The notes under the pieces: model-generated
Told to the model about the DNA's origin: nothing
Database searches by the model: none
What the model saw: the letters and a program-made list of their open reading frames with translations, nothing else
Shown: piece after piece, positions 18,279-36,045 of the stretch
How the letters are laid out: every line of letters starts with the position of its first letter
How positions within the stretch are numbered: the stretch's first letter is position 1
NCBI GenBank assembly: GCA_964654995.1
Contig: CAZZKF010000002.1
Span: 3,113 to 67,112, forward strand
Source of the DNA: an uncultured Alphaproteobacteria bacterium
GTDB lineage: Bacteria; Pseudomonadota; Alphaproteobacteria; CAZZKF01
Direction: 5' to 3'
Length of the DNA: 64,000 bases
Program-made: the position numbers and the translations under genes

Positions 18279-19438
18279 CGCACCGGTGCCCGGGTCAGGC
18301 GCCCGCCGGTGATCGGCCGGGGCACGCCGGTGGTGCCGGGAAAGCTGAGCGCCAGGCCCTCAAGACTGCGCACCGCGAGATAGGCGAAGGCTTCGGCCTC
18401 CAGCGCATCGCCGCGCCAGCCCTGGCTCTCGACCGGCTCGACCGCCACACCCAGTTCGGCCGCCAGCGCCGCCATCAGTGTGGCGTTATGGCGCCCGCCG
18501 CCGGTGACCAGCCAGCGCCGCGCCGGCTCGGGAAACAGGGCGGCCCCGGCCGCCACCGCACGCGCCACCCAGGCGGTGAGCGTCGCGGCACCGTCGGCCA
18601 GCGACAGGGACGCCGCGGCGTCAATCGAAAGGTCGTTGCGATCCAGAGACTTCGGCAGCGCCCGGGCAAAATAGGGCTGATCCATCAGCCGCCCGAGCAC
18701 CCGGTCATCGATGCGGCCGCCGGCGGCCAGCCGGCCGTCTACGTCCATCTCGCCCGCCCCATGGGCCCGCAGCCAGTCGTCGATGGGGGCGTTGCCGGGG
18801 CCGGTATCGAAGGCCATCAGCGCCTCTTGCGGGCAATCGCCAACGGCGTCGGGATCCGGAATCCAGGTGACATTGGCAACCCCGCCGATGTTCAGCACCG
18901 CCAGGGGCCACACTTCATTGGGCCGAAGCCCGGGCAAATCGGCCCGGGCCAGCGCCAGATGATAGACCGGGGCCAGGGGCGCGCCCTGGCCGCCGGCCGC
19001 CATGTCGGCACCGCGAAAATCACTGACCACATCGATCGCGGTCAGCTCGGCCAGCAGCGCCGGGTCGCCGATCTGCCATGTCCAGCCGCCCTCTGGGCAG
19101 TGCAGAACCGTATGACCGTGAAATCCGATTACATCGATATTTTCGGGTGTTAGGTCGCTTTCCTTGAGCAATTCATGAATCACGTCGGCGTGTACCCGGG
19201 TGATCATCTCCTGGGCTTCGATCAGCACATCGGGCGGCGTGTCCCGAACCTCGGGCGCCGCTGCCCGCACCGCCGCATCCAGCAGGTCGCGGTCGGCCGG
19301 CTCGTATGGTCGGGTCGTCCAAGGCCCGAACCCGTGGATCGTGGTGCCACAGGTGCGCACAATGGCGGCGTCGATGCCGTCCATCGAGGTACCGCTCATC
19401 AAGCCGATCGCGGTTCTGATGCGTGACGCCTGGTTCAT
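18275..19438 (-). CDS. anmK: anhydro-N-acetylmuramic acid kinase
   Basis: [18 protein letters not shown]-terminus and overall AnmK length; divergent from tyrS as in many Proteobacteria. Confidence 0.85.
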
Positions 19439-20833: not shown

Positions 20834-23800
20834 TCAGCCGTCGTCAGGAGCCGCTGGTGCCGGCGTTTCCGGTTCGCTCGCGGGCTCCGTTTCATCCGGG
20901 GGTGGCGGCGGCGCCGGATCAGCCGGGACAACGCTGTCCGGCGCGTCTTCGGCCGGTGCGACGGCGTCCGGTTCGCTTGGTACGGCACCGTCGATCTTGT
21001 CGTCGGCGGTTTCGCCCTCGGCCGGGCGTTCGGGTTCGGGCACCGAGCCGCCGAACAGGCTGCGCAGAATCCCCGGCGCCAGGCCTGAGAGCGGATTGAC
21101 CGAAATCTCGGGCGCGTCGCGAGCACCGCTGACCTTGTAGGTAAAGGCGAACAGGCCCTCGCCCTTGGGTCCGGTCAGGATGGTACCGACGATCGGCAGG
21201 CTGCGCAGAATCGTGTTCAGCGTATAGGCCGGGATGACGGTGCCGCGCATCTCGATGGTCGAGCGGCGGTTGTCGACCCAGCCCTCGACGGTGATGCCCA
21301 AGGCCGGCCCGTGGGCCCGCGCCTTTCTGGTGCGCAGCAGGCCGTCCTTGAGGGTAAACGGTATCTTCAACTTCCTGAAGGTGATCCCCTCGCCATTGAG
21401 CAGCTCGCCGATACCGGTGAGCGAACCGAGTGTCAGGATGCGGGCGAGGACCGGCGCATTCACCACCCGGAACCCCTTGACCAGCAATTCGCCTTCCATC
21501 GGACTGCCGGCCACCGTATCGTCGATCCTGGCGGTCAGCGTCAGCTCGCCACCGATACCGTTGTCATAGATGCCCAGCGCCCGGGCGACACGCCCGGCAT
21601 CGGTCGAGCGAATCTCCAGACTGCGGGTATCGCCCTCGCTGGTCATGACAAAGCTGAGCGGTGCGCCGTCCTCGAATTCGGCCTCGGCCCGGGCCGCGCG
21701 CCAGCGGTCCTGGTGATAGCTCGCCTGGGCGGAAAAATTGCCGATTTCCACATCGCCTTCGGCGATCACGGTTTCGAAACTGACCTGGGCATCGAAATCC
21801 GGCGGGCTCGCCCGCAGGGCCGAGGGCACGAGCAGCGAGCGTATCAGCGGCCGGATATCGAATGAGGGGCCGTCGAGCGTGATCGCCAGCACCCCGTCGG
21901 CGCCGCGCTCGGCCCGGGCCGACAATTCGGTGCGGCCATGCTTCAAGTGATCGATGGCAAAGGATTCGAGTCCTTCGTCCGGGCCGAGAACGAACTGTCC
22001 GTCCGCCTCCAGATCCGGAGCGATGAGGCGGAAATGGTCGGCCCGCAATCGATCTCCGTCCGAGCGCAACGGCACCTCGAGGCGCGCCGGTGCGCCCACC
22101 GGTTTCATCCAGCCGAGCTCGTGCACCGTCACATCGGCGCCCGAAAGATCGAAGCGCATCAAGCCCTCATCGACCCGCCGGCCACGGCCGGTCACCGTGA
22201 GCACCGCGTCGATCGGGCCCCGCACATAGCCGGCACCGGGCAGACCGAGACGGTCCAGATCCCCCTCTCCCAGCGTCGCGGCCAGCCGATAGCGGCTGCT
22301 TGAGCCTTGCCGGTTGGTGAAGTCCTCGTCCCAGGACAAGGCAAAGGGCACGTCGTTGAGGCGGATCTCGCCGCTGGCGGCGAGCCTGCGGTGAGTCGCC
22401 CGCACTCTTAAGTCCCCGCCGTCGATACGGAAGGACTTGAGCAAATTGGCGATGGAGGCGTCGCTCACCCGGGCATCCGCCTCGAACCACACCTGCTCGA
22501 AGGTCAGCCTGGGCACCAGCGGGAAGCGGAACCGCGCCCGGGTCTCGGCATGGCCGCCGGCATCCGCCGGATCAATGCCCACGCGCGTCATAAATTCCAG
22601 TGGCGGATAGTCGAGCATCCGCAGCGATTCCGCCAGCGACCCCGACACGGTGAGGGAAATATCGGCGGTCGCCTTGCCGCGACGGTTGATCTTGTCGAGG
22701 AAAATCCGGCCGCCTTCAATCGTCAGGCCAGCGACGTGGCCGCGTTCGACTTCGACATCGAGAAAGCCGTTGGTCAGCCGGCCGAACCCGTGGGCATCTT
22801 CGAGCAGCGGAAAAGCCTTGACGAATCGGGCGACCAGATCGGTGCCGCGAAAGCGAACGTCGATGGTATCGGCCGGCAGCGGGCGAACCTTCAGCATGCC
22901 GGGCTTGATGTCGACCTGCACGCTGCCCTCCGGGAAGCGCCCGGAGCGGATGTTGGCGGCGACCCAACGCCGGGCATTGGGCGCCAGCGGCAGCGGCCAG
23001 TATCGGTGCACGTCGGCGACCGTCAGGTCCTGAAACTGGCCGTAAAAACGAATCCCTGTGCCGTCGGCCCCGAAAGTGACGCGCCCCTCGCCCTCCACCG
23101 CGCCGCGGCCGAAACGGACGTAAAGGGCGTCGACCGCCAGCTCGACCGCGGCCTTGTCAAAGCGGGCGCGCAGGCTGGCGCCATCGACCGGCACCGGCTC
23201 CGGGTACACCGCGGGCAGGTTGAGGCGCCCCTCGGCCACCGAAACATCGATGTCGATATTTTCCACCACGCCATCGGGTGACAGCGTCAGGCCGAGGGTG
23301 CCGGTCAGCGGTGCGTCCAGTGGCGCCAGCTGGCCAAGCAGGCCCTTGACCCCGGCAAAGGCGGCCGGAACCACATCGAAAAAGCCGATCCGGATGCGGG
23401 TGTTTTCGGTCCGCGCCTGATAGCCGATCTCGGCCTCGATCCGCCACAACTGCCCGAGAACGCCGAGGTGCCCGGAGACCGTGCCGCTGAGGCCGGCGGC
23501 ATCGCGCCGCAACTCGACGGCCGCGTCGGGCAGCCGCCACAAGGTGTCCGACTGTTGATCGTAGAGCAGGAAATCGCCGTCGGCGACGCGGATTCGCTCG
23601 AGATACGCGCCGGTCGAGCCCGGTGCCGGATGCTGCGAAAGAATCGACAACAGTGCCGCCAGCAGCCGAGTCGAGCCCGGCGGCTGGGCCGGTTCTCCGG
23701 GCACCGTGGCGCCCAGCATGACGCGGCCTTCTTCGGTCCGCAGCAGCCGCGCCGTCGGGCCGCGGACCGTCAATTCGCGCGGCGCCAGACGGCCGTCAAA

Positions 23801-24118
23801 AAGCGCCGCCGCGCTCAGTTCCACGGAAACTTCGGGAATTGCGCCGACCTGGGCACCACTGCGCTCATACAGGCGAAAGCCGACGGCGCGGATATCCAGT
23901 CCCCGGCCCCAGCCGCCCCAGGTCAGCACCAGATCATCGAAATCAGCCTGGTACCCGGCCTCGCCGAAGGTCAAGGCCTGGCGCGCGAGCGGCGCGAACG
24001 ACGCCAGAGACAGCGGCGCCGACGCCAGCCGCAACAGAATCGCAGCGCTGGCACCGATGACGATGATCGCCACCACCAGGGCGGCCTTGAGTAGAAATCT
24101 GCCGGTCGGGCGAATCAC
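20834..24118 (-). CDS. YhdP/AsmA-like (DUF3971-type) large inner-membrane protein with acidic Pro/Glu-rich C-terminal tail
   Basis: 1094 aa, N-terminal TM helix LLKAALVVAIIVIGASAAILL, long beta-rich body, C-terminal AsmA-like region; tail PEPERPAEGETADD...PAPPPPPDETEPASEPETPAPAAPDDG. Confidence 0.65.
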   Translation of the reverse strand: MIRPTGRFLLKAALVVAIIVIGASAAILLRLASAPLSLASFAPLARQALTFGEAGYQADFDDLVLTWGGWGRGLDIRAVGFRLYERSGAQVGAIPEVSVELSAAALFDGRLAPRELTVRGPTARLLRTEEGRVMLGATVPGEPAQPPGSTRLLAALLSILSQHPAPGSTGAYLERIRVADGDFLLYDQQSDTLWRLPDAAVELRRDAAGLSGTVSGHLGVLGQLWRIEAEIGYQARTENTRIRIGFFDVVPAAFAGVKGLLGQLAPLDAPLTGTLGLTLSPDGVVENIDIDVSVAEGRLNLPAVYPEPVPVDGASLRARFDKAAVELAVDALYVRFGRGAVEGEGRVTFGADGTGIRFYGQFQDLTVADVHRYWPLPLAPNARRWVAANIRSGRFPEGSVQVDIKPGMLKVRPLPADTIDVRFRGTDLVARFVKAFPLLEDAHGFGRLTNGFLDVEVERGHVAGLTIEGGRIFLDKINRRGKATADISLTVSGSLAESLRMLDYPPLEFMTRVGIDPADAGGHAETRARFRFPLVPRLTFEQVWFEADARVSDASIANLLKSFRIDGGDLRVRATHRRLAASGEIRLNDVPFALSWDEDFTNRQGSSSRYRLAATLGEGDLDRLGLPGAGYVRGPIDAVLTVTGRGRRVDEGLMRFDLSGADVTVHELGWMKPVGAPARLEVPLRSDGDRLRADHFRLIAPDLEADGQFVLGPDEGLESFAIDHLKHGRTELSARAERGADGVLAITLDGPSFDIRPLIRSLLVPSALRASPPDFDAQVSFETVIAEGDVEIGNFSAQASYHQDRWRAARAEAEFEDGAPLSFVMTSEGDTRSLEIRSTDAGRVARALGIYDNGIGGELTLTARIDDTVAGSPMEGELLVKGFRVVNAPVLARILTLGSLTGIGELLNGEGITFRKLKIPFTLKDGLLRTRKARAHGPALGITVEGWVDNRRSTIEMRGTVIPAYTLNTILRSLPIVGTILTGPKGEGLFAFTYKVSGARDAPEISVNPLSGLAPGILRSLFGGSVPEPERPAEGETADDKIDGAVPSEPDAVAPAEDAPDSVVPADPAPPPPPDETEPASEPETPAPAAPDDG

Positions 24119-24202
24119 TGAATCGTCTCGTTCGGCGATCGCAGCGTCTTGACGCGTTTTTCGCCGTTCCTCATTGTCCTCCGGTTACCACAACGGGGCC
24201 CC

Positions 24203-27148
24203 ATGCACCAGCTTTCACACTGCTACCGCCAACATCCGCCGCCGGCACCCCATGATCGTCGCCGCGTGCGCGACGCACTCGACGCGTGGCGGGCGGCCGC
24301 TTGCGACGCCGGCCTCGAGACCGACAGCGACCCCGAGACGGAGGCGACACTGGCGGCGATTTTCGGCAACAGCCCGTTTCTGACCGGCTGTATCCTGCGC
24401 GATCCGACGTTTGCCGCCGACCTGCTCGGCAGCCCTCCGGATGTCGTGCTGGAGCGGATTTTCGAGAATCTGGCGCAGACCGCGCCGCATCTGCAGGCGA
24501 CGCCCGCCTTGATGCGGGTTCTGCGCATTGCCCGCCAGCGCATCGCCCTGACCACGGCACTGGCCGATGTCATGGGCGTCTGGGACCTGGAAGCCGTCAC
24601 CGGAGCCTTGAGCCGCTTTGCCGAGGCCGCATTGGGTTATGCATGTGCCCATCTGTTGCGCCAGCGCGCCGAAGCCGGCGACATCACCCTGGGACCGGCG
24701 GCGGATGCGCCCGCACCGACGCCCGAGGCGATCATGGCGGGAAGCGGCCTCATCGTCCTTGGCATGGGCAAGCTGGGGGCGGGCGAGCTCAACTACTCCA
24801 GCGACATCGACCTGATCGTGCTCTATGACCCCGAGGTCGCACGCCACGGCACGAGGCGCGCCTCGCAGGCCGCGTTCATCCGGCTCGCCCGCGACCTGGT
24901 GCGCATTCTGCAGGAGCGCACCGGCGACGGCTATGTCTTTCGGGTGGACTTGCGCCTGCGCCCCGACCCCGGCGCAACGCCGGTGGCACTGTCGACCGAT
25001 GCCGCCGAGATCTATTACCAGAGCGTCGGCCTCAACTGGGAACGCGCGGCGATGATCAAGGCGCGGCCGGTGGCCGGCGATATCGCTGCCGGCACCGACT
25101 TTCTCGAGCGCATCGCGCCTTTCGTCTGGCGCCGCCATCTCGATTACGCGGCGCTCGAGGACATCCACGCCATCCGCCTGCAGATCGAGAGTTTCCATCA
25201 CCAGCGTGATATCGCGCTGCCCGGCCACGACCTCAAGCTCGGGCGTGGCGGCATCCGCGAGATCGAATTTTTCGCTCAGACCCAGCAACTGATCGTTGGT
25301 GGGCGCGATCCCTCGGTGCGCGAGCCCACCACCCTGGGCGCATTGGCGGCCCTGTGCGCCGCCGGCTGGATCGATACGGATGTCCGCGATGAGTTGAGCG
25401 CGGCCTATCGCTACCTGCGGCGCCTCGAGCACCGGCTGCAGATGATCAACGACGAGCAGACCCACACCATCCCCACCCGGCCTGACGATATCGCCCGACT
25501 GGCCGCCTTTGCCGGTGCGCCGTCGGCGGCGGCGCTCGAGGTCGAGCTGCTGGGGCATTTGCGCCGCGTTCACCGGCGCTACCAAGACCTGTTCGAGGAC
25601 AGCGCCGTGCGCGCCGCCGGACCGGCGCTGACGATCACCTCGGGACCGGACACGGCCGAGCAGATCCGGGCGCTTGGCGATCTCGGCTATGCGGATGCAG
25701 AGCGCGCGCTGGCTACCGTGAAGGCCTGGCAGCATGGGCGTTATCGGGCCTGTCGCAGCGACCGCGCGCGCCGGCTTCTCGGCGATTTGACACCGGCAAT
25801 TCTCAAGGCGCTGGGTGCGTCCGCGGATGCCGACGGGGCGCTTGCCCGCTTCGACGAGTTTCTCTCGCGCCTGCCTTCAGGCGTGCAGCTTTTCTCGCTG
25901 TTCCATGCCCACCCGTGGCTGCTCGAGCTGTTGTCCGAAATCCTCGGCGGGGCACCGCGTCTGGCCGACGCGTTGAGCCGCGCCCCGGGGCTGCTCGACG
26001 CGGTTCTGGGGCCGGATTTCTTCGCGCCGCCGCCGGGTCCGGAGACCCTCGAGCAATCGCTGGACGAAGCCCTGGCGCCGGCCCGCGATTATCAGGATCT
26101 GCTCGACCTGGCGCGGCGCTGGTGCAATGAGCTCAAGTTCCGCATCGGCGTTCTCGTCCTTCGCAACGTGATCGACGGCCTGGCCGCCGGGCGCGCCCAG
26201 AGTGACATCGCGGACGCCCTGATCCGTGCACTTCTGCCCCGCGTGGCAGATGAATTCGCCCGCCAGCACGGGCGCATCGAAGGTGCCGGCCTGGCGGTCG
26301 TGGCGCTGGGCAAGCTGGGTGGGCGGGAATTGACGCCGACCTCGGATCTCGATCTGGTGTTCATCTACGAGGCCAGGGACGATGACGCGGTCTCGGGCGG
26401 CGCCAGGCCGTTGCCGGTGAGCCAGTATTTCGCCCGGCTCAGCCAGCGGCTCATCGCGGCGCTCACCGCGCTGACCGCAGAAGGCCGGCTTTATCAGGTC
26501 GACATGCGGCTGCGCCCGTCCGGCCGGGCCGGGCCGATCGCCGTGTCGCTCGACCGGTTCGAAACCTACCACCGCGACCATGCCTGGACCTGGGAACATA
26601 TGGCGCTGACACGCGCCCGCCCGGTGGCCGGACCGCCGGCGCTGTGCACGCGCATCGACCGTATCACGCGCGCGGTGCTGACCCGCCCCCGTGACCCGGA
26701 TGAGCTGCGCGCCGATGTTGCCGAGATGCGCACCCGTCTGGAAGCCGAATTTCCGACCACCAACCCCTGGGACATCAAGCATGTCCGCGGCGGTCTTCTC
26801 GATCTCGAGTTCATCGCCCAGTATCTGGTGCTGCGCCACGCGGCAGACGCCCGGCGGGTGCTGTGTCCGACGACGGCGGAAGTATTTTCGCGGCTGGCCG
26901 CAGCCGGGCTGATGCCCGAGATGGAGGCCAGAGAGTTCCGCGCAGCGACCGAATTTCAGCAGAACATCCAGCAGTTCCTGAGGCTGTGTTTCGAAGGCCC
27001 GTTCACCGAAGATTCGGCCCCGGCGGGCCTCAAGCGGGCATTGGCCGCCGCCGCCGGATGTTCCGGCTTTGACGCCCTCAAACGCCGCTTGCTGGAAACC
27101 CAGGATTGGGTCCGTAGCCGCTACGCCAAGTATCTGGAGACGCCCTGA
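24203..27148 (+). CDS. glnE: bifunctional glutamine synthetase adenylyltransferase/adenylyl-removing enzyme
   Basis: Start MHQLSHCYRQ at 24203; two nucleotidyltransferase modules (GMGKLGAGELNYSSDIDL and ALGKLGGRELTPTSDLDL). Confidence 0.9.
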   Translation: MHQLSHCYRQHPPPAPHDRRRVRDALDAWRAAACDAGLETDSDPETEATLAAIFGNSPFLTGCILRDPTFAADLLGSPPDVVLERIFENLAQTAPHLQATPALMRVLRIARQRIALTTALADVMGVWDLEAVTGALSRFAEAALGYACAHLLRQRAEAGDITLGPAADAPAPTPEAIMAGSGLIVLGMGKLGAGELNYSSDIDLIVLYDPEVARHGTRRASQAAFIRLARDLVRILQERTGDGYVFRVDLRLRPDPGATPVALSTDAAEIYYQSVGLNWERAAMIKARPVAGDIAAGTDFLERIAPFVWRRHLDYAALEDIHAIRLQIESFHHQRDIALPGHDLKLGRGGIREIEFFAQTQQLIVGGRDPSVREPTTLGALAALCAAGWIDTDVRDELSAAYRYLRRLEHRLQMINDEQTHTIPTRPDDIARLAAFAGAPSAAALEVELLGHLRRVHRRYQDLFEDSAVRAAGPALTITSGPDTAEQIRALGDLGYADAERALATVKAWQHGRYRACRSDRARRLLGDLTPAILKALGASADADGALARFDEFLSRLPSGVQLFSLFHAHPWLLELLSEILGGAPRLADALSRAPGLLDAVLGPDFFAPPPGPETLEQSLDEALAPARDYQDLLDLARRWCNELKFRIGVLVLRNVIDGLAAGRAQSDIADALIRALLPRVADEFARQHGRIEGAGLAVVALGKLGGRELTPTSDLDLVFIYEARDDDAVSGGARPLPVSQYFARLSQRLIAALTALTAEGRLYQVDMRLRPSGRAGPIAVSLDRFETYHRDHAWTWEHMALTRARPVAGPPALCTRIDRITRAVLTRPRDPDELRADVAEMRTRLEAEFPTTNPWDIKHVRGGLLDLEFIAQYLVLRHAADARRVLCPTTAEVFSRLAAAGLMPEMEAREFRAATEFQQNIQQFLRLCFEGPFTEDSAPAGLKRALAAAAGCSGFDALKRRLLETQDWVRSRYAKYLETP

Positions 27149-27211
27149 TTTTCTTGATATATGACCTTAGCGTCATAAATTAACGATCTGTAATAACGGG
27201 AGGAACATGAC

Positions 27212-27688
27212 ATGCCGAAAGAGCTTTCCGAGGGCGATTCAGCGCCTGATTTCACCCTGCCGCGCGACGGCGGCGGCACCGTGTCACTGGCCGATTTCGC
27301 CGGTCGGCCGCTGGTTCTCTATTTCTATCCCAAGGACGATACGCCCGGCTGCACCCGCGAAGCGATCGCCTTTAGCGAACTGGCCGAGCGTTTTGCCAAG
27401 GCCGGAGCGGCAATCGTCGGCGTCTCCAAGGACAGCGTTGCCCGCCACGACAAATTCCGCGACAAGCACGGCCTCAAGGTCATCCTTGCTTCCGACGAGG
27501 ACGCCAAAACCATCGAGGCTTACGGCGTCTGGGTCGAAAAGAAGCTTTACGGCCGCACCTACATGGGGATCGAGCGCGCGACCTTCCTGATCGACGGCAC
27601 CGGTACCATCCGGCGCATCTGGCGCAAGGTCAGGGTCAAGGGCCATGCCGAAGAGGTCCTGGCCGCGGTCGAAGCTCTCGGCGCCTGA
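27212..27688 (+). CDS. bcp: thioredoxin-dependent peroxiredoxin Bcp/PrxQ
   Basis: 158 aa; FTPGCT peroxidatic Cys motif (DDTPGCTREA). Confidence 0.85.
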   Translation: MPKELSEGDSAPDFTLPRDGGGTVSLADFAGRPLVLYFYPKDDTPGCTREAIAFSELAERFAKAGAAIVGVSKDSVARHDKFRDKHGLKVILASDEDAKTIEAYGVWVEKKLYGRTYMGIERATFLIDGTGTIRRIWRKVRVKGHAEEVLAAVEALGA

Positions 27689-27701
27689 CCGGCCGTCGCA
27701 G

Positions 27702-28595
27702 ATGACCGCCCCGGCGCCTGAAAACACTGCTGGCGGCACCCTGATCGCCCATGGCCTTGCCGTGCTTCACGAGGCCGACCCATGGGCCAAGGCACGGCGC
27801 ACGGCGGATGTGGCCCGTTTGTGGCGCAGTCGCAAACTGTCTGTCGGCATCGAACGCGGGGAGGACCGCCCGGCGCCGCCCGAGCACCCGGCACGCCCGG
27901 CGCGGCCCCGGCTGATGGCGCCCCGGGCCATGGCGCGGCGCCGGGCCGGCTCGGGGACACGCGGGCGAATCGCTCTCATCCACGCCCTGTCCCATATTGA
28001 GCTCAATGCCATCGATCTCGCCTGGGATCTGATCGTGCGATTCGCCGAATCGTCGCTGCCGCGGGCCTTCTTCGACGACTGGGTGACGGTCGCCGCCGAC
28101 GAGGCTCGCCATTTCCTGATGTTGAGCGGCAGGCTTGGTGAGCTCGGCGCCGGCTACGGCGACCTGCCGGCCCATGACGGCCTGTGGCAGGCCGCCTCTG
28201 AGACCCGCCATGACCTGCTGGCCCGTCTCGCCGTGGTGCCACTGGTGCTGGAAGCCCGTGGACTTGACGTGACACCTGCCATGGCGGACCGGCTCGCGCG
28301 CGCCGGCGATTCCTTAACCTCCGGAATCATAAGGGAAATCATGAATGACGAAATCGCCCATGTCGGCGCCGGCCGGCACTGGTTCGAGCATCTTTGCCGA
28401 TCACGCGGACAGGACCCGATCGCCACCTATCAGGCGCTGGTGCGGCGCCATTTCCGAGGGCGCATCAAGCCGCCGTTCAATACGGCAGCACGTGATCGTG
28501 CCGGTTTCGGCGCCGAATATTATCGCTCCCTGGTGCCGACAGCGGCCAATAGCCAGACGGTAGAAGATCATGCCGGTGGTGCGCGGAATGGTTAG
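27702..28595 (+). CDS. ferritin-like DUF455 family protein
   Basis: Start MTAPAPEN at 27702, 14 nt after bcp stop; HALSHIELNAIDLAWD and DEARHF...EIAHV di-iron-like ExxH pairs. Confidence 0.55.
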   Translation: MTAPAPENTAGGTLIAHGLAVLHEADPWAKARRTADVARLWRSRKLSVGIERGEDRPAPPEHPARPARPRLMAPRAMARRRAGSGTRGRIALIHALSHIELNAIDLAWDLIVRFAESSLPRAFFDDWVTVAADEARHFLMLSGRLGELGAGYGDLPAHDGLWQAASETRHDLLARLAVVPLVLEARGLDVTPAMADRLARAGDSLTSGIIREIMNDEIAHVGAGRHWFEHLCRSRGQDPIATYQALVRRHFRGRIKPPFNTAARDRAGFGAEYYRSLVPTAANSQTVEDHAGGARNG

Positions 28596-28597
28596 CC

Positions 28598-28666
28598 TAA
28601 TGGTTTGTTAATGGCTGTCGAATAGCGTTAATCGGTTGAAAAATGTCCGTTTATGGTTTGCAATGG
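28598..28666. promoter_or_regulatory. array of TTAATGG-like direct repeats at 11/20/22/11-nt spacing upstream of the M23 peptidase/bactofilin pair
   Basis: Seen in sequence: taatgg(28598) ttaatgg(28608) ttaatcgg(28628) tttatgg(28650) caatgg(28661). Confidence 0.25.
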
Positions 28667-28716
28667 CGGCCACATTCACATATCGATCGTGTCTTTAGAC
28701 GTTGGGTCGGGGTGTT

Positions 28717-29991
28717 ATGACTGAAAGCGTCTGGGGGAAGGCTGTGCGTCTTTTGCACCAGTATTTCCCCGAGCGGCAAATCTATTTCCGCACGCGCGGA
28801 TCGGTGCGTTATTTCGTCCTGAGCACCCGGGTTCAGGCGATTGGCGCAGTCGGACTGGCTTTGTTCGCGGTCTGGGTCGGGATTGCCAGCGCCAACCTCA
28901 TCCTTGAAGATCAGATCATCGCCGCCAAGGAACGCGAGATCGCCAAGCTGTCCAGCCAATACAAGGCGCTGGACACCGAGCTCAGCAACCTTCAGAAGAA
29001 CGTCGTCGCCACCGCCAAGGAGCTGGAAGCGCGCCAGCGCTACCTCAACAGCCTGATTGCCCGGTCCGGCGCCCCGAAGATCGAACCGGCCGGGGCGCTC
29101 AAGCTCGAGCGTCTCAACGCCACGAGCCCCGGCGCCGAAGCAACGCCGGAGCCGCAGAAACCAGCTGCCAAGCCGAAATCCGACACCGTCGGCCAATTGC
29201 ATACGCCCCCGCTCTCCGAGACCCTTCTGGCGAGTGCAACGACGCGGCCGGGCACCCCCGGCGAAAGATCTGAAAACGATCCGCTGGCCGATGTCGCCCG
29301 CCGGCTGGCCTGGGTGGATGAGGCCCAGCAAACGGTCGCCGCCCTGTTTCTGGCCGACGCCCGTGCCACCTTCAACGAGCTTGAACGCAAGATCGAAGTC
29401 ACCGGTCTCACCGGCGAAAAGCTGCTGGCGGCCATGGACGAGCCCCACCGCGGCCAAGGCGGTCCGTTCGTGCTCGATACCGGCGACCCTGTCTCGTTCG
29501 GAGCGGCCAAGCCCGGGGATGTATTCTTCAAGCTGCTCAACGAAGTGCAGAAGCTGCAGGACCTGAAATCGATTCTGACCAGCTTGCCGGTATTAAAACC
29601 CGTCGATCAGTACTATATTTCCAGTGGCTTCGGGCGCCGGCGCGATCCCTTCAACGGCCGCCTGGCCATGCACGCGGCGCTCGACATGGCCGGCCCCTGG
29701 CGCTCGCCGGTTTATTCGACGGCACCCGGCGTCGTCACCAAGGCCGGCTGGAACGGACCCTACGGTCGTTTTGTCGAAATCGACCATGGACACGGGTTCA
29801 AAACCCGTTTCGGCCACCTTGATAAGATTTTAGTAACCAAAGGCGAGGAAATTGGGGCAAGACAGAAGATCGGACTCATGGGCAAGTCGGGGCGCGCCAC
29901 CAGCACACATGTTCATTACGAAGTCTGGTTCGAGGGCGTTCCGCAGGACCCCATGAAATTTTTCAAGGCAGCACAATATGTTACAGAATAG
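28717..29991 (+). CDS. bitopic M23-family metallopeptidase with cytoplasmic N-terminus, TM helix, coiled coil and C-terminal LytM domain (LmdC-like)
   Basis: Start MTESVWGKA; TM AIGAVGLALFAVWVGIASANLIL; coiled coil (KEREIAKLSSQYKALDTELSNLQKN...); M23 motifs HxxxD (MHAALDMAG) and HxH (THVHYEV). Confidence 0.75.
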   Translation: MTESVWGKAVRLLHQYFPERQIYFRTRGSVRYFVLSTRVQAIGAVGLALFAVWVGIASANLILEDQIIAAKEREIAKLSSQYKALDTELSNLQKNVVATAKELEARQRYLNSLIARSGAPKIEPAGALKLERLNATSPGAEATPEPQKPAAKPKSDTVGQLHTPPLSETLLASATTRPGTPGERSENDPLADVARRLAWVDEAQQTVAALFLADARATFNELERKIEVTGLTGEKLLAAMDEPHRGQGGPFVLDTGDPVSFGAAKPGDVFFKLLNEVQKLQDLKSILTSLPVLKPVDQYYISSGFGRRRDPFNGRLAMHAALDMAGPWRSPVYSTAPGVVTKAGWNGPYGRFVEIDHGHGFKTRFGHLDKILVTKGEEIGARQKIGLMGKSGRATSTHVHYEVWFEGVPQDPMKFFKAAQYVTE

Positions 29992-30463
29992 CGATCGCAA
30001 GAGACCAGAAAAGCCGAGCCTCGTCGCCCCGTCCATCGTCGGGTCCGACGTACGCGTCACCGGCGATATCGCCACGCCCGGCGAGTTGCAGTTCGATGGC
30101 ACCATCGAAGGCGACGTCCATTGCGGCTCCTTGACCATCGGCGAACAGGCGGCGGTGACCGGCGGCGTTGTTGCCGACACGGTTCTGGTTCACGGCTCGG
30201 TCATCGGCACCATCCGCGCCCGCTCGGTCCACCTCAGCCACACCGCCAAGGTCGTCGGCGACATCTGGCACGAAGACCTGGTGGTCGAATCCGGCGCCTT
30301 CATCGAAGGCCGCTGCGCCCATGTCGACAACCCGCTCGAAGGCACCGACACCGAGGGCCAGCCGCACCGCAAGTACATCGAGGCACGTTCGACCAGCCTT
30401 GATGAGACGGACGTCGACGAGACCGTCGAGGATGCGGCGGTCGAGCCCGAAGCCGACGCCTAG
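29978..30463 (+). CDS. bactofilin family cytoskeletal protein
   Basis: 161 aa; overlaps upstream gene by 14 nt; beta-helical repeats (VTGDIATPGELQFDGTIEGDVHCGSLTIGEQAAVTGGV...), acidic tail. Confidence 0.75.
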   Translation: MLQNSDRKRPEKPSLVAPSIVGSDVRVTGDIATPGELQFDGTIEGDVHCGSLTIGEQAAVTGGVVADTVLVHGSVIGTIRARSVHLSHTAKVVGDIWHEDLVVESGAFIEGRCAHVDNPLEGTDTEGQPHRKYIEARSTSLDETDVDETVEDAAVEPEADA

Positions 30464-30510
30464 CAGGTCTTGATCGGCCGGCGCGCCGTCGCCGGCTGCA
30501 TGCAAAGCCG

Positions 30511-31657
30511 TCAGCGCGCCGCTTCGGCGGCGTTCCCCTGTTTGTCTACGCTGTCGCTGCCGCCGACCCGGGCGGCCAGAGCGGCGGCCAGAAATGCATC
30601 CAGATCGCCGTCAAGAACCGTCTTCGGCGTCGGCGATTCGACGCCGGTGCGCAGATCCTTGACCATCTGGTAGGGCTGCAACACGTAAGAGCGGATCTGA
30701 TGGCCCCAGCCGATTTCGGTCTTGGCGGCGCTTTCGGCCTGCGCCTGTTCCTCGCGCCGGCGCAATTCCGCCTCATAGAGGCGGGCTTTCAGCATCTTCA
30801 TCGCGGTCGCCCGGTTCTTGTGCTGCGAGCGTTCGTTCTGACACTGGACGACAATGCCGGTCGGCAGATGGGTGATGCGCACGGCGCTGTCGGTGGTGTT
30901 CACATGCTGGCCGCCGGCCCCTGAGGCCCGATAGGTATCGACGCGCAGGTCCTTGTCGGCAATTTCGATCTCGATGGTGTCATCGATCGCCGGATAGACC
31001 CAGACGCTGGCAAAACTGGTGTGGCGCCGCGCGCTGGCGTCGAACGGCGAAATGCGCACCAGGCGATGAACGCCGCTTTCCGTCTTCAGCCAGCCGAAGG
31101 CGTTTTCGCCCTTGATCAGCAGGGTGGCGGACTTGATCCCTGCCTCCTCGCCGGGGCTTTCCTCGATCACCTGAACCGAATAGCCGTGCGATTCCGCCCA
31201 GCGCATGTACATGCGGGCCAGCATCTGAGCCCAGTCCTGGCTTTCGGTGCCGCCCGCCCCGGCATGAATTTCGACATAGGCATCATTGGCGTCGGCCTCG
31301 CCCGAAAGCAGCGTTTCGATGCGCCTTTTTTCGGCTTCCACCGCTAGGCGCGCGATCGCCGATTCGGCGTCGGCGATCAGGTCGGCGTCGTCGTCCGCTT
31401 CCGCCAGCTCGATCAACTCGATATTGTCGGCCAGCTCGCGCTCGAGCGCCTCGCAGGCCGCAATCGCGTCGGCCAGGCGGGTGCGCTCGCGCATCAGTCG
31501 GCGTGCCAGCGCCGGATCGTTCCACAAACTCGGGTCTTCGGCCCGCGCGTTCAGCTCGGCCAGCCGGGCCTGGGCGCGATCCCAGTCAAAGATGCCTCCT
31601 CAGCAGTTCCAGCGACTGCTTGATGTTGTCGATCTGTGCCTGAACTTCGGCGCGCAT
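30511..31657 (-). CDS. prfB: peptide chain release factor 2 (requires programmed +1 frameshift)
   Basis: Frame 0: [23 protein letters not shown]-stop; +1 frame continues [31 protein letters not shown]...[16 protein letters not shown] (GGQ motif). Table lists the two frames as separate ORFs 31586..31843 and 30511..31527. Confidence 0.9.
31586..31591 (-). other. prfB: prfB +1 ribosomal frameshift site CUU UGA C with AGGAGG SD-like element 3 nt upstream
   Basis: Minus-strand mRNA reads ...CUG AGG AGG CAU CUU UGA CUG GGA...; identical logic to the E. coli prfB autoregulatory site. Confidence 0.85.
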
Positions 31658-31757
31658 GATCCTGTCCTTCGATAACTCTGCCTCATCACCCACGCGCCGG
31701 CCCCGACAGGCGCGCCCACCGCCCCTGCCCGGCCGGAACCGGCATCGGATGGATGGT

Positions 31758-34217
31758 CTAATAGATTCCGCCGGTGCCGTCGCGCGTGTTGGCATTGACT
31801 TGCAGCACTTTGTCCGATCCGTCAAGAACCGGGCGGCTGCCACGAGGCTCGGTGCCGGGAATGAAGGCCTCGAAAATCACGTTCTTGTCACCCGGCGCCG
31901 CCGGCAGGCCGGTTCGGGCATTGACGCGGACCAGCCGGATCCCCGGCGGAATCCGGAACGGAACAGCTGGTTTGCCCTTGAGCGCGGCGGCCATGAAATC
32001 GCGGAACACGGGCACTGCCGTGGTGTTGCCGAATTCGTGCTTGCCCAGCGACATCGGCGTATCGAACCCCATGAACACGCCGACCACCAGATCCGGCGAA
32101 AAACCGATAAACCAGGTATCGACGCTGTCGTTGCTGGTCCCGGTCTTGCCGGCCAGCGGCTTGCCCACGGAACGGATGCGGATGCCGGTGCCGCGCTGCA
32201 CCACGCCTTCCAGTAGCGAGACAATCTGATACGCCGTGCGCGGATCGAGTACCTGATCGCGGGTGTCGGGAAGCTGCGGCGGTGGTGTGCCATCCCAGGC
32301 GGCCAGACGACAGTTCGGGCATTCACGGGCATCGTGGCGATAGATGGTCCGCCCGTGGCGATCCTGAATGCGGTCAATCAGGGTGGGGTGAATGCGCTTG
32401 CCGCCGTTGACGAAAATGGCGTAAGCCGCCGTGAGCCGCATCAAGGTGGTCTCGCCGGCGCCCAGGGCCATCGACAGGATCGGCGGCATGTTGTCAACGA
32501 CGCCGAAGCGCTTGGCATAGGTGATCACCTTGTCAATGCCGATGTACTGGGCAAGACGCACAGTCATCAGGTTGCGCGATTTTTCGATGCCCAGGCGCAG
32601 CGTGCTGGGGCCATAGAACTTGTTGCTGGAATTGGCCGGCTTCCACTTGCCCAGCCCGTAGCCCTGATCGATCACGAAGGGTGCATCGAGGATCAGGCTC
32701 GACGGCGTAAATCCCTGATCGAGCGCCGCGGCATAGACGATCGGCTTGAACGCCGAGCCCGGCTGGCGCAGGGCCTGGGTCGCCCGGTTGAACTGGCTGG
32801 CGCGGTAATCGAAACCGCCGACCAGCGCCAGAACCCGGCCCGTATGCGGGTCCATGGCGATCAGCGCGCCATCCAGCCTGGGCACCTGGCGCAGGGCGTA
32901 GCGCGCAACATCGAGCGCTGCCTGCTCGCTCAACGGCTCGACGGCGATCACATCGCCCGGGGCCAGCACGTCCGATGGCCGGGTGATTTTCGGGCCGCGC
33001 CGGTTGACGTCGATGAACTTGCGCGCCCAGGTCATCTGGTCAAGCGGAATATAGCCGCTGCTGCCGTCTTCCAGCCCGATGAACGCGCCCTCGTCGTCGA
33101 GATCAAGCACCACCGCCGGGCGCCAGGTCTTGGGGCCGAGGTGAATATCGAGGGCGGTCAAGCCCTCCAGCCAGTTGTCGCTGAGTGACAGGCGGGCCAG
33201 CGGGCCACGCCAGCCATGGCGGCGATCGTAGGCGATGATCCCGGCCCGCAGGGTTCGGTCGGCAATCGCCTGCAATTGCGGCGACAGCGTCGTGCGCACC
33301 GACAACCCGCCCTCGTAAAGCTGACGCTCGCCGTAAAGATCATAAAGCTGACGGCGCACCTCCTCGTTGAAATAGGCGGCGTTGACATAATGGAGATCGG
33401 CGCGCGGCCGAATCTCCAGCGGCTCGGCCTTGGCCGCTTCGGCCTCTTGCGGCGTGATGAAGCCGTCCTCGACGAGGCGCGAGAGCACCCAGTTGCGCCG
33501 CGCCACGGCCGCCTTGGGGTGGCGCAGGGGGTGATAGTTGTTGGGTGCCTTCGGCAGCGCCGCGAGGTACGCCATTTCCGCCAGCGTCAGTTCATCCAGC
33601 GCCTTGTTGAAATAGTTGAGCGCCGCCGCCGCGACCCCGTAGGAGCCCATGCCGAGATAAATCTCGTTGAGATAAAGCTCGAGAATCTGATCCTTGGAAA
33701 AGGCGTGTTCGATGCGAAAGGCGAGGATCGCTTCGCGGATCTTGCGGCGGTAGCTGACTTCGCCACTGAGCAGAAAATTCTTGGCCACCTGCTGGGTGAT
33801 CGTCGAGGCGCCGACCGGCCGGCGGTCCGTGCCGATATTGCGCAGATTGATCAGAATGGCACGAACGATGCCGAGATAATCAAGCCCCTGATGGTGATAG
33901 AAATTCTTGTCCTCGGCGGCCAGGATGGCATTGATCAGGGGCTTCGGGATCGCCGAGATCGGCACGAACAGGCGTTTCTGGCGGGCGTATTCGGTCAGCA
34001 GACTGCCGTCGGCCGCATGCACCCGGGTCATCACCGGCGGCTCGTAATCGGCCAATTGCTTGTAGTCGGGAAGATCGCGTCCGAACCGATAAAGCGCGTA
34101 TGCCCCGCCGCCCACCGCGCCGATGCCCACGACCGCCGTAATCAGCACGGCGTAAAGCGTGCCGCGTACCACCCGGCGCAGCCCGGTCGCGAGTCGTTTG
34201 ACTCTGGTTTGCGACAT
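31758..34217 (-). CDS. mrcA: penicillin-binding protein 1A (bifunctional transglycosylase/transpeptidase)
   Basis: 819 aa; N-terminal TM, GT51 motifs (EDKNFYHHQG, RKIREA), transpeptidase SxxK (SAFK), SxN, KTG (KTGTSND). Confidence 0.9.
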   Translation of the reverse strand: MSQTRVKRLATGLRRVVRGTLYAVLITAVVGIGAVGGGAYALYRFGRDLPDYKQLADYEPPVMTRVHAADGSLLTEYARQKRLFVPISAIPKPLINAILAAEDKNFYHHQGLDYLGIVRAILINLRNIGTDRRPVGASTITQQVAKNFLLSGEVSYRRKIREAILAFRIEHAFSKDQILELYLNEIYLGMGSYGVAAAALNYFNKALDELTLAEMAYLAALPKAPNNYHPLRHPKAAVARRNWVLSRLVEDGFITPQEAEAAKAEPLEIRPRADLHYVNAAYFNEEVRRQLYDLYGERQLYEGGLSVRTTLSPQLQAIADRTLRAGIIAYDRRHGWRGPLARLSLSDNWLEGLTALDIHLGPKTWRPAVVLDLDDEGAFIGLEDGSSGYIPLDQMTWARKFIDVNRRGPKITRPSDVLAPGDVIAVEPLSEQAALDVARYALRQVPRLDGALIAMDPHTGRVLALVGGFDYRASQFNRATQALRQPGSAFKPIVYAAALDQGFTPSSLILDAPFVIDQGYGLGKWKPANSSNKFYGPSTLRLGIEKSRNLMTVRLAQYIGIDKVITYAKRFGVVDNMPPILSMALGAGETTLMRLTAAYAIFVNGGKRIHPTLIDRIQDRHGRTIYRHDARECPNCRLAAWDGTPPPQLPDTRDQVLDPRTAYQIVSLLEGVVQRGTGIRIRSVGKPLAGKTGTSNDSVDTWFIGFSPDLVVGVFMGFDTPMSLGKHEFGNTTAVPVFRDFMAAALKGKPAVPFRIPPGIRLVRVNARTGLPAAPGDKNVIFEAFIPGTEPRGSRPVLDGSDKVLQVNANTRDGTGGIY

Positions 34218-34381
34218 GAGTCCTCTTTTGTTCCCTAGGGCTTTTCCATTACATCCCGGTTGTCACATTCCGGCTGAAAGGCCCGTTTGCCGCCCTTTGG
34301 CACTGATCCATTTCATAATCCAGAAATGTGTCGGAGATATGGCGAAGCTGTGTTCCGGCATGTGGCATGGCGGGCCTGCGG

Positions 34382-35569
34382 TCAGGTCCGGCGCTCCCGG
34401 AAAAACTGCTCGATAGCGCGGAAAATCGCTTCGGCAATGCCGCGGCGCCCGGACGGCGACGACATGATCCGGGCATCCTCGGGATTCGACAGATAGCCCA
34501 TCTCGACCAGCACCGACGGCACGTCCGGCGCCTTGAGCACGACGAAGCCGGCGAACCGATGGCTGTTCGAGCGCAACTTCACACGACGCCCGAGCTCCGG
34601 CACCATCAGCGTCGCCAACTGGGCCGAATAATTCATCGTCTCGCGCTGCGCCAGATCGATCAGAATATTGGTGACATCGTCAGAGGCACCGTCGAGGTCG
34701 ACCCCGGCGATGACATCGGACTTGTTTTCCTTGGCCGCCAGCGCCGCCGCCTCCTGGTCAGAGGCCTGTTCCGAAAGCGTATAGACGGTGGCACCGCGGA
34801 CCTTGCGATTGTTCAGCGAGTCCGCATGGATCGAGATCAGCAGATCGGCCCCGGCCCGGCGTGCCCGCTGAACGCGTTCGCGCAAGGGAACGAATATGTC
34901 GCGATTCCGGGTAAGCATCGGCTGATAACGCCCGCTGGCATCGAGTATCCGCTTGAGCTCCAGCGCCACCTGAAGGGTGATCCTCTTTTCCGGCAGGCCG
35001 TTGACGCCGGCCGCCCCCGGGTCAATCCCGCCATGGCCGGCATCGATGGCGATGACGCGGCGAAAATCGTTGGCCTTGCGCACTGGCGGCGCCTCGACCT
35101 GGCGTGGTCTGGCGCGGCGTCGCGGCCCGGCACTGGCACGGAAGCTGGCGGCATCGGTGGCTTTGAGATCGAGAACAAGACGGTAATGGCGGACCTTGCC
35201 GCGCGGCGGAATGAGGAAGGCGCGCTTGACCGCCACCGGGCCCTTGGCATCGAGAACGACCCGCGAATTGCCGGGCCGGAACAGGCCGTAACGATACTGG
35301 GCGATGAGGCCGGCACCCCGGCCACGCTGGCTGCCATTGATCGACCAGTTGATCTCGGGCAGGTCGATGACCACCCGATAGGGGTCGGCAAGGGTGAAAA
35401 TCTCGAACTTGACCGGCGCGCTCAGATCAATCACGAAGCGCGTCGATTGGGGATGCTGGCCAAGACGAACCGCCGTTGCCTCGGGTTGGGACAATGCCGC
35501 CTGCATCGCCCCGATGAGGCCGAAAACCGCCAGCAGCAGACCCCTGAACGTCGTTTTCAGACCGGTCAT
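34382..35569 (-). CDS. amiC: N-acetylmuramoyl-L-alanine amidase (AMIN domain + Amidase_3)
   Basis: Start MTGLKTTFRGLLLAVFGLIGAMQA (signal peptide); IDAGHGGIDPGA, LLISIHADS Amidase_3 zinc ligands. Confidence 0.8.
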   Translation of the reverse strand: MTGLKTTFRGLLLAVFGLIGAMQAALSQPEATAVRLGQHPQSTRFVIDLSAPVKFEIFTLADPYRVVIDLPEINWSINGSQRGRGAGLIAQYRYGLFRPGNSRVVLDAKGPVAVKRAFLIPPRGKVRHYRLVLDLKATDAASFRASAGPRRRARPRQVEAPPVRKANDFRRVIAIDAGHGGIDPGAAGVNGLPEKRITLQVALELKRILDASGRYQPMLTRNRDIFVPLRERVQRARRAGADLLISIHADSLNNRKVRGATVYTLSEQASDQEAAALAAKENKSDVIAGVDLDGASDDVTNILIDLAQRETMNYSAQLATLMVPELGRRVKLRSNSHRFAGFVVLKAPDVPSVLVEMGYLSNPEDARIMSSPSGRRGIAEAIFRAIEQFFRERRT

Positions 35570-35626
35570 CCTGTGCCATTCAACGCTTCGGGCCCATATA
35601 TAAAAACTCTTTTCCGGTCCTGGCAA

Positions 35627-36045
35627 CGACCAATTGATCGGTGATTCGGCTTAAAAATCAGGTTATTTGCATAAAACCGTTTGTAAGCGCGCACCGCCTC
35701 CGACTATTTTAGGGGCGCTACTGCCCGCGAGGGTCACGGCCCGCAGGCTCCGGCCAGGGACCGGGGCCCATTTTCGCGATCCCGGTCCGAGTGCCGACCG
35801 GTGACGCGTCTTATGGTCTTTGAAGCGGCCTCCCGCGGTGCAGGTCTGACAAGGATTTATCGGATCAACCGGGATGCGAAACCCAAGCGCGAAGCTTACC
35901 AGCCCAGGCCGAAGTGCGCCCATGGCGCCTCACCTTGGCGCCGGGCCCGGAGCGGCTATGGCGCAAGCGGTTTCCCCCCAACAGAGAAACCGGCGCCCCG
36001 CCTGTTCACAGGCGATGCAAGGCGCGCCGGACGGAGTACAACTGA
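35627..36045 (+). promoter_or_regulatory. ~420-nt structured leader upstream of rne (candidate autoregulatory 5'-UTR)
   Basis: No credible ORF; several GC stems (ggaccggggccc...cccggtcc; ccggtttcc-N10-ggaaaccgg written as aagcggtttcccccc aacagagaaaccggcg). Confidence 0.35.

Follow-up and report, generated by a model that had tools for sequence, protein, structure and literature searches.

An orthologue of the lmdC-bacA module, an M23 peptidase gene overlapping a bactofilin gene, in an uncultured alphaproteobacterium

Introduction

Two overlapping genes, one for a predicted M23 metallopeptidase and one for a bactofilin, are located on the forward strand of a 64,000-nucleotide stretch of DNA from an uncultured Alphaproteobacteria bacterium (contig CAZZKF010000002.1, positions 3,113 to 67,112; the whole stretch is referred to as the window). 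The locus raises the question whether the bactofilin guides the peptidase, as in the lmdC-bacA module, or whether the two genes are neighbours by inherited gene order, and what the pair reveals about its host. As described by Pöhl et al. (2024, eLife, PMC10945521), LmdC is bitopic; a short cytoplasmic N-terminus and a transmembrane helix precede a periplasmic coiled-coil region, and an M23 domain forms the C-terminus. Since every computationally testable feature of LmdC was found in the first protein, the gene pair, which is carried by a metagenome-assembled genome, is orthologous to the lmdC-bacA module characterised in that study. The module has already been described and is widespread in Alphaproteobacteria, and the copy in the window is an ordinary one. 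Its only peculiarity, the MLQN start and the short N-terminal tail of BacA, is lineage-specific.

Results

The gene pair and its homologues

In the six-frame list of open reading frames (ORFs), the peptidase frame extends over 28702..29991 (+), and an in-frame ATG at 28717 gives a product of 424 residues. This ATG is backed as the true start by the preceding GGGG(T/C)G Shine-Dalgarno-like run and by the conservation of start and context in the two closest relatives, L083 (MAENVWG) and L003 (MRVNVWG). Pfam analysis assigned DUF5930 (residues 2-112, E 8.7e-12, 45.2 bits for a cut-off of 27) and Peptidase_M23 (PF01551, residues 318-412, E 1.3e-26, 93 bits) to the first protein, and Bactofilin (PF04519, residues 19-113, E 1.4e-23) to the second. 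Database matching recovered an identical copy of both genes, flanked by the same neighbours, from a Joint Genome Institute (JGI) metagenome contig (3300023440) and from a Logan contig. Antisense ORFs are also listed in the region; those tested gained no support from Pfam, and such ORFs are typical for DNA of 61-68% G+C. The ORF list, Pfam and the independent contigs thus agree on the overlapping peptidase and bactofilin genes that had been proposed in the initial annotation, and both lmdC and bacA are real genes, well past chance expectation. The coordinates of all features are collected in Table 1.

A database search with the peptidase yielded 546 homologues, the best 120 of which were nearly all DUF5930-M23 proteins of 385-650 residues. 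In addition, genome contigs were scanned with a profile of the family alignment, giving at least 80 loci (L003-L082) to which the locus counts below refer. Among them are Rhodospirillum sp. A1_3_36 (L043), Pararhodospirillum oryzae (L069), Caenispirillum (L030), Hyphomonas (L058, L063) and several Caulobacterales. Loci L043, L069, L063 and L058 served as stand-ins for Rhodospirillum rubrum ATCC 11170 and Hyphomonas neptunium ATCC 15444, and residue conservation was taken from alignments of 25 and 86 homologues. Over its full length, LmdC of the window is 31% identical to the protein of Rhodospirillum sp., 30% to that of Hyphomonas sp. and 33% to that of Caulobacter sp. The values of 30-31% are in the same range as the identity between Rhodospirillum and Hyphomonas LmdC, which was 28% in the same test. 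For BacA, identities were 48% (Rhodospirillum), 43% (Hyphomonas) and 44% (Caulobacter).

Architecture and predicted topology of LmdC

The hydropathy profile of LmdC (Kyte-Doolittle, 19-residue window) reached its maximum of 2.15 at residues 45-63, and no other hydrophobic segment was present in the protein. The sequence was also checked for a lipobox, and none was found in LmdC. Residues 1-40 contain seven K/R versus two D/E (net charge +5), and the 25 residues following the transmembrane helix are slightly acidic with four K/R versus five D/E. Applied to these charges, the positive-inside rule predicts a cytoplasmic N-terminus and a periplasmic M23 domain. An AlphaFold2 (AF2) model built on the 86-sequence alignment (mean predicted local distance difference test score, pLDDT, of 83.5; predicted template modelling score, pTM, of 0.64) consists of a helix at residues 5-16, a short hairpin, one continuous helix at 37-117, the helices listed with the stalk in Table 1, and a compact beta-rich domain at residues 300-424. 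From these heuristics, LmdC is predicted to be bitopic, with a short cytoplasmic N-terminus, one transmembrane helix and a periplasmic remainder. The location of the M23 domain outside the cytoplasm, as initially proposed, is in line with hydropathy, with the positive-inside rule and with the single long helix that runs through the hydrophobic segment in the AF2 model.

The heptad scan gave a pattern at residues 58-113, indicative of a coiled-coil-type stalk. Heptad pattern and AF2 helices agree on a coiled-coil-type region between the transmembrane helix and the M23 domain, as expected for LmdC. The linker at about residues 118-188 is rich in Pro, Ala and Lys and disordered according to pLDDT. 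When residues 1-120 were used as query against 1.84 billion representatives, 446 clusters (50% identity) were obtained. Within the best 150 of these 446 clusters the match was nearly always N-terminal and mostly located in proteins of 400-500 residues, which indicates that the N-terminal module is specific to the LmdC family. A few family members (P0028, P0029, P0033-P0037 and P0049) are 520-650 residues long and display extra coiled-coil-type Pfam matches between DUF5930 and M23. The length of the periplasmic stalk is thus highly variable in the LmdC family.

The M23 domain and its active site

The residues H319, D323, H367, H398 and H400 were invariant across the 86 homologues, and the catalytic motifs align with those of ShyA and Csd1. 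The motifs HxxxD and HxH had been called intact from the sequence, which was borne out by the alignments of 25 and 86 homologues as well as by the alignment to ShyA and Csd1. Foldseek comparison of the M23 domain with the PDB retrieved ShyA, NMB0315, Csd1/Csd2, lysostaphin and LytM. The best solved relative by sequence was chain A of 5j1l, the Csd1-Csd2 complex of Helicobacter pylori (E 6.7e-25), followed by ShyA.

An alternative to an active enzyme is a catalytically dead LytM-type regulator which, in the manner of EnvC, NlpD or DipM, would activate amidases. The combination of coiled coil and LytM domain resembles EnvC, EnvC structures were among the Foldseek and sequence matches, and a gene for an AMIN+Amidase_3 protein (amiC) is located about 4 kb away. 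LytM regulators have degenerate active sites (PMC10945521), whereas that of LmdC in the window is intact, with five metal-binding or catalytic residues that do not vary in the LmdC family. The NCBIfam models of LytM regulators scored 30-45 bits overall for cut-offs of 270-900; EnvC reached 35.8 (cut-off 270), NlpD 42 (311), DipM 37.7 (740) and ActS 45.4 (375). Moreover, the best matches of the domain are active enzymes, namely ShyA, MepM and Csd1. EnvC is a secreted protein, unlike a bitopic protein with a cytoplasmic N-terminus, which also counts against a regulator of this type. Finally, for LmdC of H. neptunium DD-endopeptidase activity has been demonstrated (PMC10945521). A dead regulator is thus considered very improbable.

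An active M23 enzyme may also be a general housekeeping DD-endopeptidase of the MepM or ShyA type, its position next to bacA reflecting inherited gene order without physical partnership. ShyA and MepM were the top NCBIfam matches, and they have the M23/LytM fold and the full catalytic set in common with LmdC. The neighbourhood of the pair (bcp, prfB, PBP1A, amiC, rne) is a conserved housekeeping synteny, and in H. neptunium lmdC is essential and a bacA deletion mutant could be obtained (PMC10945521). The scores were, however, far below the cut-offs (ShyA 93.9 for 700, MepM 88 for 341, ShyC 79.1 for 700) and the matches were restricted to the M23 domain. The N-terminal architectures of MepM and ShyA, and likewise of EnvC, NlpD and DipM, differ from that of LmdC. 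As the NCBIfam matches remained sub-threshold and confined to the M23 domain, LmdC is no equivalog of a named housekeeping endopeptidase or LytM regulator. Nor did any NCBIfam model for LmdC or bactofilin attain its cut-off. Two further features that bear on the housekeeping alternative, the cytoplasmic hairpin and the gene overlap, are treated below.

The echo of Helicobacter Csd1/CcmA that had been pointed out for this locus is a fair one, considering that no solved structure is closer in sequence to the M23 domain than 5j1l. In H. pylori, too, an M23 endopeptidase (Csd1/Csd2) is functionally tied to a bactofilin; CcmA reportedly contacts a membrane-spanning complex including Csd1, and it acts at the outer curve (PMC10945521). 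The match to Csd1 nevertheless did not extend beyond the M23 domain and included neither a DUF5930-type hairpin nor a coiled-coil region. A tblastn search of LmdC against the whole 64-kb window revealed no second M23 gene in the manner of a Csd2-like paralogue.

The cytoplasmic beta-hairpin

The N-terminal segment of R. rubrum LmdC forms a conserved cytoplasmic beta-hairpin, in which the clusters R25/H26/L27 and R30/S31 are needed for BacA-dependent localisation (PMC10945521). In H. neptunium, LmdC residues 1-38 bind BacA with a dissociation constant (KD) of ~15 uM (PMC10945521). The AF2 model of the window protein displays a corresponding hairpin (FPERQIYFRTRGSVRYFVLS) with strands at residues 20-26 and 29-35 and a pLDDT of about 91. 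Its residues E19-R20-Q21-I22-Y23-F24-R25-T26 align with E24-R25-H26-L27-M28-L29-R30-S31 (ERHLMLRS) of Rhodospirillum sp. LmdC (L043), which begins with MSEFDPQELSLSQFHRKLRRYFPERHLMLRS and in which the positions of R25, H26, L27, R30 and S31 equal the published R. rubrum numbering. Hence R20/Q21/I22 and R25/T26 of the window are the counterparts of the two clusters. This residue-for-residue correspondence of the hairpin motif supports the LmdC-type similarity of the N-terminal region that had been proposed initially.

In the homologue alignments R20, Q21, R25 and G28 were at least 90% conserved and Q40 was invariant, and the motif FPER[QH][IL]Y.R[ST].G.V...Q was present in 71 of 81 loci. The hairpin belongs to the best-conserved parts of LmdC outside the M23 domain, and its motif is conserved to about the same degree as the catalytic centre. 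Such strong conservation of a cytoplasmic element, which would be useless to a purely periplasmic enzyme, argues against a mere housekeeping endopeptidase.

Overlap of lmdC and bacA

The two genes overlap out of frame, and an AAGG is found ~10 nucleotides 5' of the bacA ATG. Of the 80 loci, 71 carry bacA directly downstream of lmdC and in the same orientation; four of the nine exceptions are contig ends. The bacA start was situated 11-44 nucleotides inside lmdC, always at 3n+2, in 65 of these 71 loci, which makes the overlap an old, conserved trait of the family. With this shared overlap, a single stretch of bases encodes both the C-terminal residues of LmdC and, in another frame, the MFSK start of BacA. 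The commonest overlap is 17 nucleotides (26 loci), which is also the length in H. neptunium (17 bp; PMC10945521), and the 14 nucleotides of the window were seen in three other loci as well. Automatic start choice gave spurious overlaps in L081 and L030 (146 and 233 nucleotides); by eye, the L030 bactofilin has an MFSK start and a 17-nucleotide overlap.

The overlap is consistent with translational coupling of the two genes. Its preservation across orders speaks, together with the conserved hairpin, against bacA being an incidental neighbour of a housekeeping endopeptidase, an alternative that is therefore regarded as improbable. Conserved hairpin and overlap support instead tight co-expression and a conserved docking interface in the LmdC-BacA module. 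The window shares with H. neptunium and R. rubrum the order lmdC then bacA with out-of-frame overlap, the hairpin, the single transmembrane helix, the coiled-coil stalk and the intact C-terminal M23 domain. Domains, topology, hairpin and overlap hence agree with the lmdC-bacA architecture that the initial annotation had recognised in a bitopic transmembrane/coiled-coil/M23 protein followed by an overlapping bactofilin.

Table 1. Features of the lmdC-bacA locus (positions in the window)
Feature	Position	Strand	Description and basis
lmdC-like gene	28717..29991	+	424-residue bitopic (predicted) M23 metallopeptidase, DUF5930 + Peptidase_M23
bacA	29978..30463	+	161-residue bactofilin; Pfam PF04519, homologues, alignment to BacA of Rhodospirillum, Hyphomonas and Caulobacter loci
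lmdC/bacA overlap	29978..29991	+	14 nucleotides, ATGTTACAGAATAG, different frames
Cytoplasmic beta-hairpin	28771..28824	+	LmdC residues 19-36 (ERQIYFRTRGSVRYFVLS); presumed bactofilin-binding determinant
Transmembrane helix	28831..28905	+	single, about LmdC residues 39-63; predicted from Kyte-Doolittle and AF2 helix
Periplasmic stalk	28906..29580	+	predicted; heptad-patterned helix to residue 117, linker 118-188, helices 189-229, 233-241 and 269-288
M23 (LytM) catalytic domain	29602..29988	+	LmdC residues 296-424; HxxxD (H319, D323), H367, HxH (H398, H400)
Promoter-like element	28636..28664	+	TTGAAA-N17-TGCAAT in the 121-nucleotide intergenic region upstream of lmdC; putative function

The bactofilin and its N-terminal tail

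The beta-helical core of BacA (residues 19-113) aligns with BacA of the Rhodospirillum, Hyphomonas and Caulobacter loci. The N-terminal tail, residues 1-18 (MLQNSDRKRPEKPSLVAP, window 29978-30031), is shorter than any other in the alignment, and the C-terminal tail is acidic. These two tails and the MLQN start distinguish the window from the H. neptunium and R. rubrum modules. In C. crescentus (Caulobacter crescentus), BacA is targeted to the membrane by MFSKQAKS, in which F2 is critical, and the membrane-targeting consensus is MFSKKKK, with M1, F2 and two basic residues being important (PMC12448750). The BacA start of the window, MLQNSDRKRPEK, comprises a hydrophobic L2, Asp6 and the basic residues R7, K8 and R9, but no Phe; Leu thus occupies the position of F2 in the C. 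crescentus protein. In place of MLQNSDRKR, an MF(S/T)K-type start is usual, 62 of 71 LmdC-linked bactofilins beginning with MF, most often as MFSK.

In L083, the 84% identical relative, the bactofilin (tail 2397-2450) starts with MLQNNDRKRPEK and has the same MLQN, and relatives at 58-73% identity start with MFRNNK or MFSSKK. The occurrence of MLQN on the independent L083 assembly indicates that the F2L change is real and lineage-specific. A frameshift or sequencing error at the N-terminus of BacA was ruled out by the MLQN of L083 and by the change being a single substitution of TTC to TTA.

Membrane binding of BacA may well persist, given the hydrophobic nature of Leu and the three basic residues behind it. 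A speculative and rather unlikely scenario is that intrinsic binding of the polymer was weakened in the lineage of the window and L083, where Phe2 was replaced, the N-terminal tail shortened to 18 residues and an acidic C-terminal tail acquired, with attachment largely delegated to the co-translated LmdC. If true, this would be a natural example of a client protein replacing the membrane-targeting sequence (MTS), an effect seen only upon overproduction of PbpC in C. crescentus (PMC12448750), which leaves room for such a scenario.

The C. crescentus system also bears on the identity of the client. There, a homologous bactofilin recruits a bitopic cell-wall enzyme via a short cytoplasmic N-terminal tail, as proposed for the window, yet the client PbpC is a synthase (class A penicillin-binding protein, PBP) and that of the window a hydrolase. 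The main client of BacA could accordingly be another membrane protein, for instance a class A PBP comparable to PbpC, with LmdC as a minor or accessory interactor. In C. crescentus, where an lmdC-like gene precedes bacA (L051), PbpC is the sole BacA client reported to date (PMC12448750), and in the window a PBP1A gene is found 1.3 kb downstream of bacA in convergent orientation. This PBP1A is, however, a conserved housekeeping enzyme, 63-74% identical over many lineages, and is encoded on the opposite strand beyond prfB. Nothing in it pointed to a PbpC-type bactofilin-binding tail, although it was not examined in detail. Both client relationships could moreover coexist, and a merely accessory LmdC has hardly any probability.

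Gene neighbourhood and upstream region

The gene order in the window is anmK, tyrS, yhdP, glnE, bcp, DUF455, lmdC, bacA, prfB, PBP1A, amiC, rne and a gene for an M48-TPR protease. Positions 20834-38655 correspond to a conserved housekeeping neighbourhood composed of yhdP or glnE, bcp, (DUF455), lmdC, bacA, convergent prfB, PBP1A, amiC and then rne. Across the loci, with counts bounded by 4-kb flanks, bcp was found upstream in 51, convergent prfB in 37, PBP1A in 29, yhdP in 25 and DUF455 in 15. The neighbourhood is common to Caulobacterales, Parvibaculum/Parvibaculales and Kordiimonas-labelled loci, and the order bcp, lmdC-like gene, bacA, prfB, PBP1A is also that of the Caulobacter-type loci. 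None of the flanking genes of the window was present at the Rhodospirillum, Pararhodospirillum and Caenispirillum loci.

Upstream of lmdC, a GTTAATC box (28627-28633) directly precedes the promoter-like element. Box and TTGAAA-N17-TGCAAT are conserved in L083 and L003 (48% LmdC identity). Neither occurs in the other 79 loci, and both are therefore uninformative on the family; they may form a promoter or operator particular to this lineage. A CtrA-type TTAA-N7-TTAA box upstream of lmdC was considered and dropped, as inspection by eye revealed no full site in the intergenic region.

Several neighbouring genes deserve mention in their own right. As listed, the ORFs of the bcp/PrxQ peroxiredoxin (27212..27688) and of DUF455 (27645..28595) overlap by 44 nucleotides (27645-27688). 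Peptidoglycan genes within 12 kb of the module are anmK for anhydro-MurNAc kinase (18275-19438, minus strand) and the class A PBP1A gene (31758-34217, minus strand). The AmiC-like AMIN+Amidase_3 gene lies at 34382-35626 (minus strand), some 4 kb from the module. The prfB gene for release factor 2 (30511-31657, minus strand) contains a canonical programmed +1 frameshift with its site at 31585-31591. Its short first frame stops at CTT TGA C, with an internal AGGAGG 3 nucleotides upstream, and the +1 frame continues as DWDRAQARL... into the main ORF of 338 residues.

Inference on the host

The initial annotation had derived from the module a curved or spiral host of the Rhodospirillales type. This part was not supported, as the module is spread over many lineages and the flanking genes of the window are unlike those of Rhodospirillum-like loci. 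It was found in genomes labelled Phenylobacterium, Brevundimonas, Caulobacter, Asticcacaulis, Maricaulis, Hyphomonas, Henriciella, Parvibaculum, Kordiimonas, Ferrovibrio and others. Given its occurrence across these genera, the presence of the module is no predictor of a curved or spiral cell, and the cell morphology of the host cannot be deduced from it.

The nearest relatives are metagenomic sequences and a metagenome-assembled genome (MAG) labelled Sphingomonadales bacterium, with identities of 48% for LmdC, 73% for BacA and 73% for PBP1A. Luteithermobacter, Kordiimonas and Emcibacter are the nearest named taxa (LmdC 38%, BacA 51%, PBP1A 65%), and the nearest named isolate by PBP1A is Emcibacter nanhaiensis with 65%. 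Luteithermobacter and Emcibacter are placed in Emcibacterales by NCBI. The identity of PBP1A is flat, at 63-67%, over many alphaproteobacterial lineages including MAGs labelled Rhodospirillales, and the order of the host is thus not fixed by PBP1A. On these sequence comparisons, an assignment to the Rhodospirillales is conceivable but not specifically supported.

Discussion

The locus is very probably best explained as a bactofilin-guided LmdC-BacA operon with local cleavage of cross-links. This reading starts from the gene structure, the domains, the predicted topology, the conservation of hairpin and catalytic residues, the synteny and the overlap. Expression would begin with lmdC and bacA being probably co-transcribed and translationally coupled via their 14-nucleotide overlap. 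BacA would then form membrane-associated polymers, on which LmdC, with its N-terminus inside and its C-terminus outside, would dock by the cytoplasmic hairpin. The periplasmic coiled-coil stalk would bring the active zinc M23 DD-endopeptidase to the peptidoglycan. Cleavage of peptide cross-links would thereby be restricted to sites marked by the bactofilin, resulting in a local bias of cell-wall growth. By analogy with the systems of H. neptunium and R. rubrum, LmdC may be expected to bind BacA and to have the specificity of a DD-endopeptidase, and the pair to contribute to cell shape; bactofilin-guided local DD-endopeptidase activity is the most likely role of the pair.

Several points weigh on the other side. 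Binding, activity and phenotype are all carried over from proteins of ~30% identity, and the reference proteins are from congeners (Rhodospirillum sp. A1_3_36 and Hyphomonas sp. CY54-11-8) and not from the published strains. The predicted topology is based on hydropathy and charge heuristics together with the AF2 model. Within the hairpin clusters there are deviations from R. rubrum (H26 to Q, L27 to I, S31 to T), although at these positions the LmdC family has Q, I and S/T as its majority or common variants. With MLQN in place of MFSK the canonical F2 is missing, and the membrane association of BacA may differ for this reason. Regarding the operon, a strict sigma-70 promoter scan of 28400-30700 gave nothing and no intrinsic terminator was detected, terminator-like sites being at chance level with none after bacA.

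The module opens no new question and says nothing on the cell shape of the host. A small addition to the published picture is the frame of the overlap and the conservation of the hairpin, followed here over about 70 species-level genomes of many alphaproteobacterial orders. The main value of the analysis is one of annotation. Source databases leave the two genes nameless or call them just 'M23 family metallopeptidase' and 'polymer-forming cytoskeletal protein', and in this uncultured lineage of Alphaproteobacteria they can now be labelled lmdC and bacA with good confidence.

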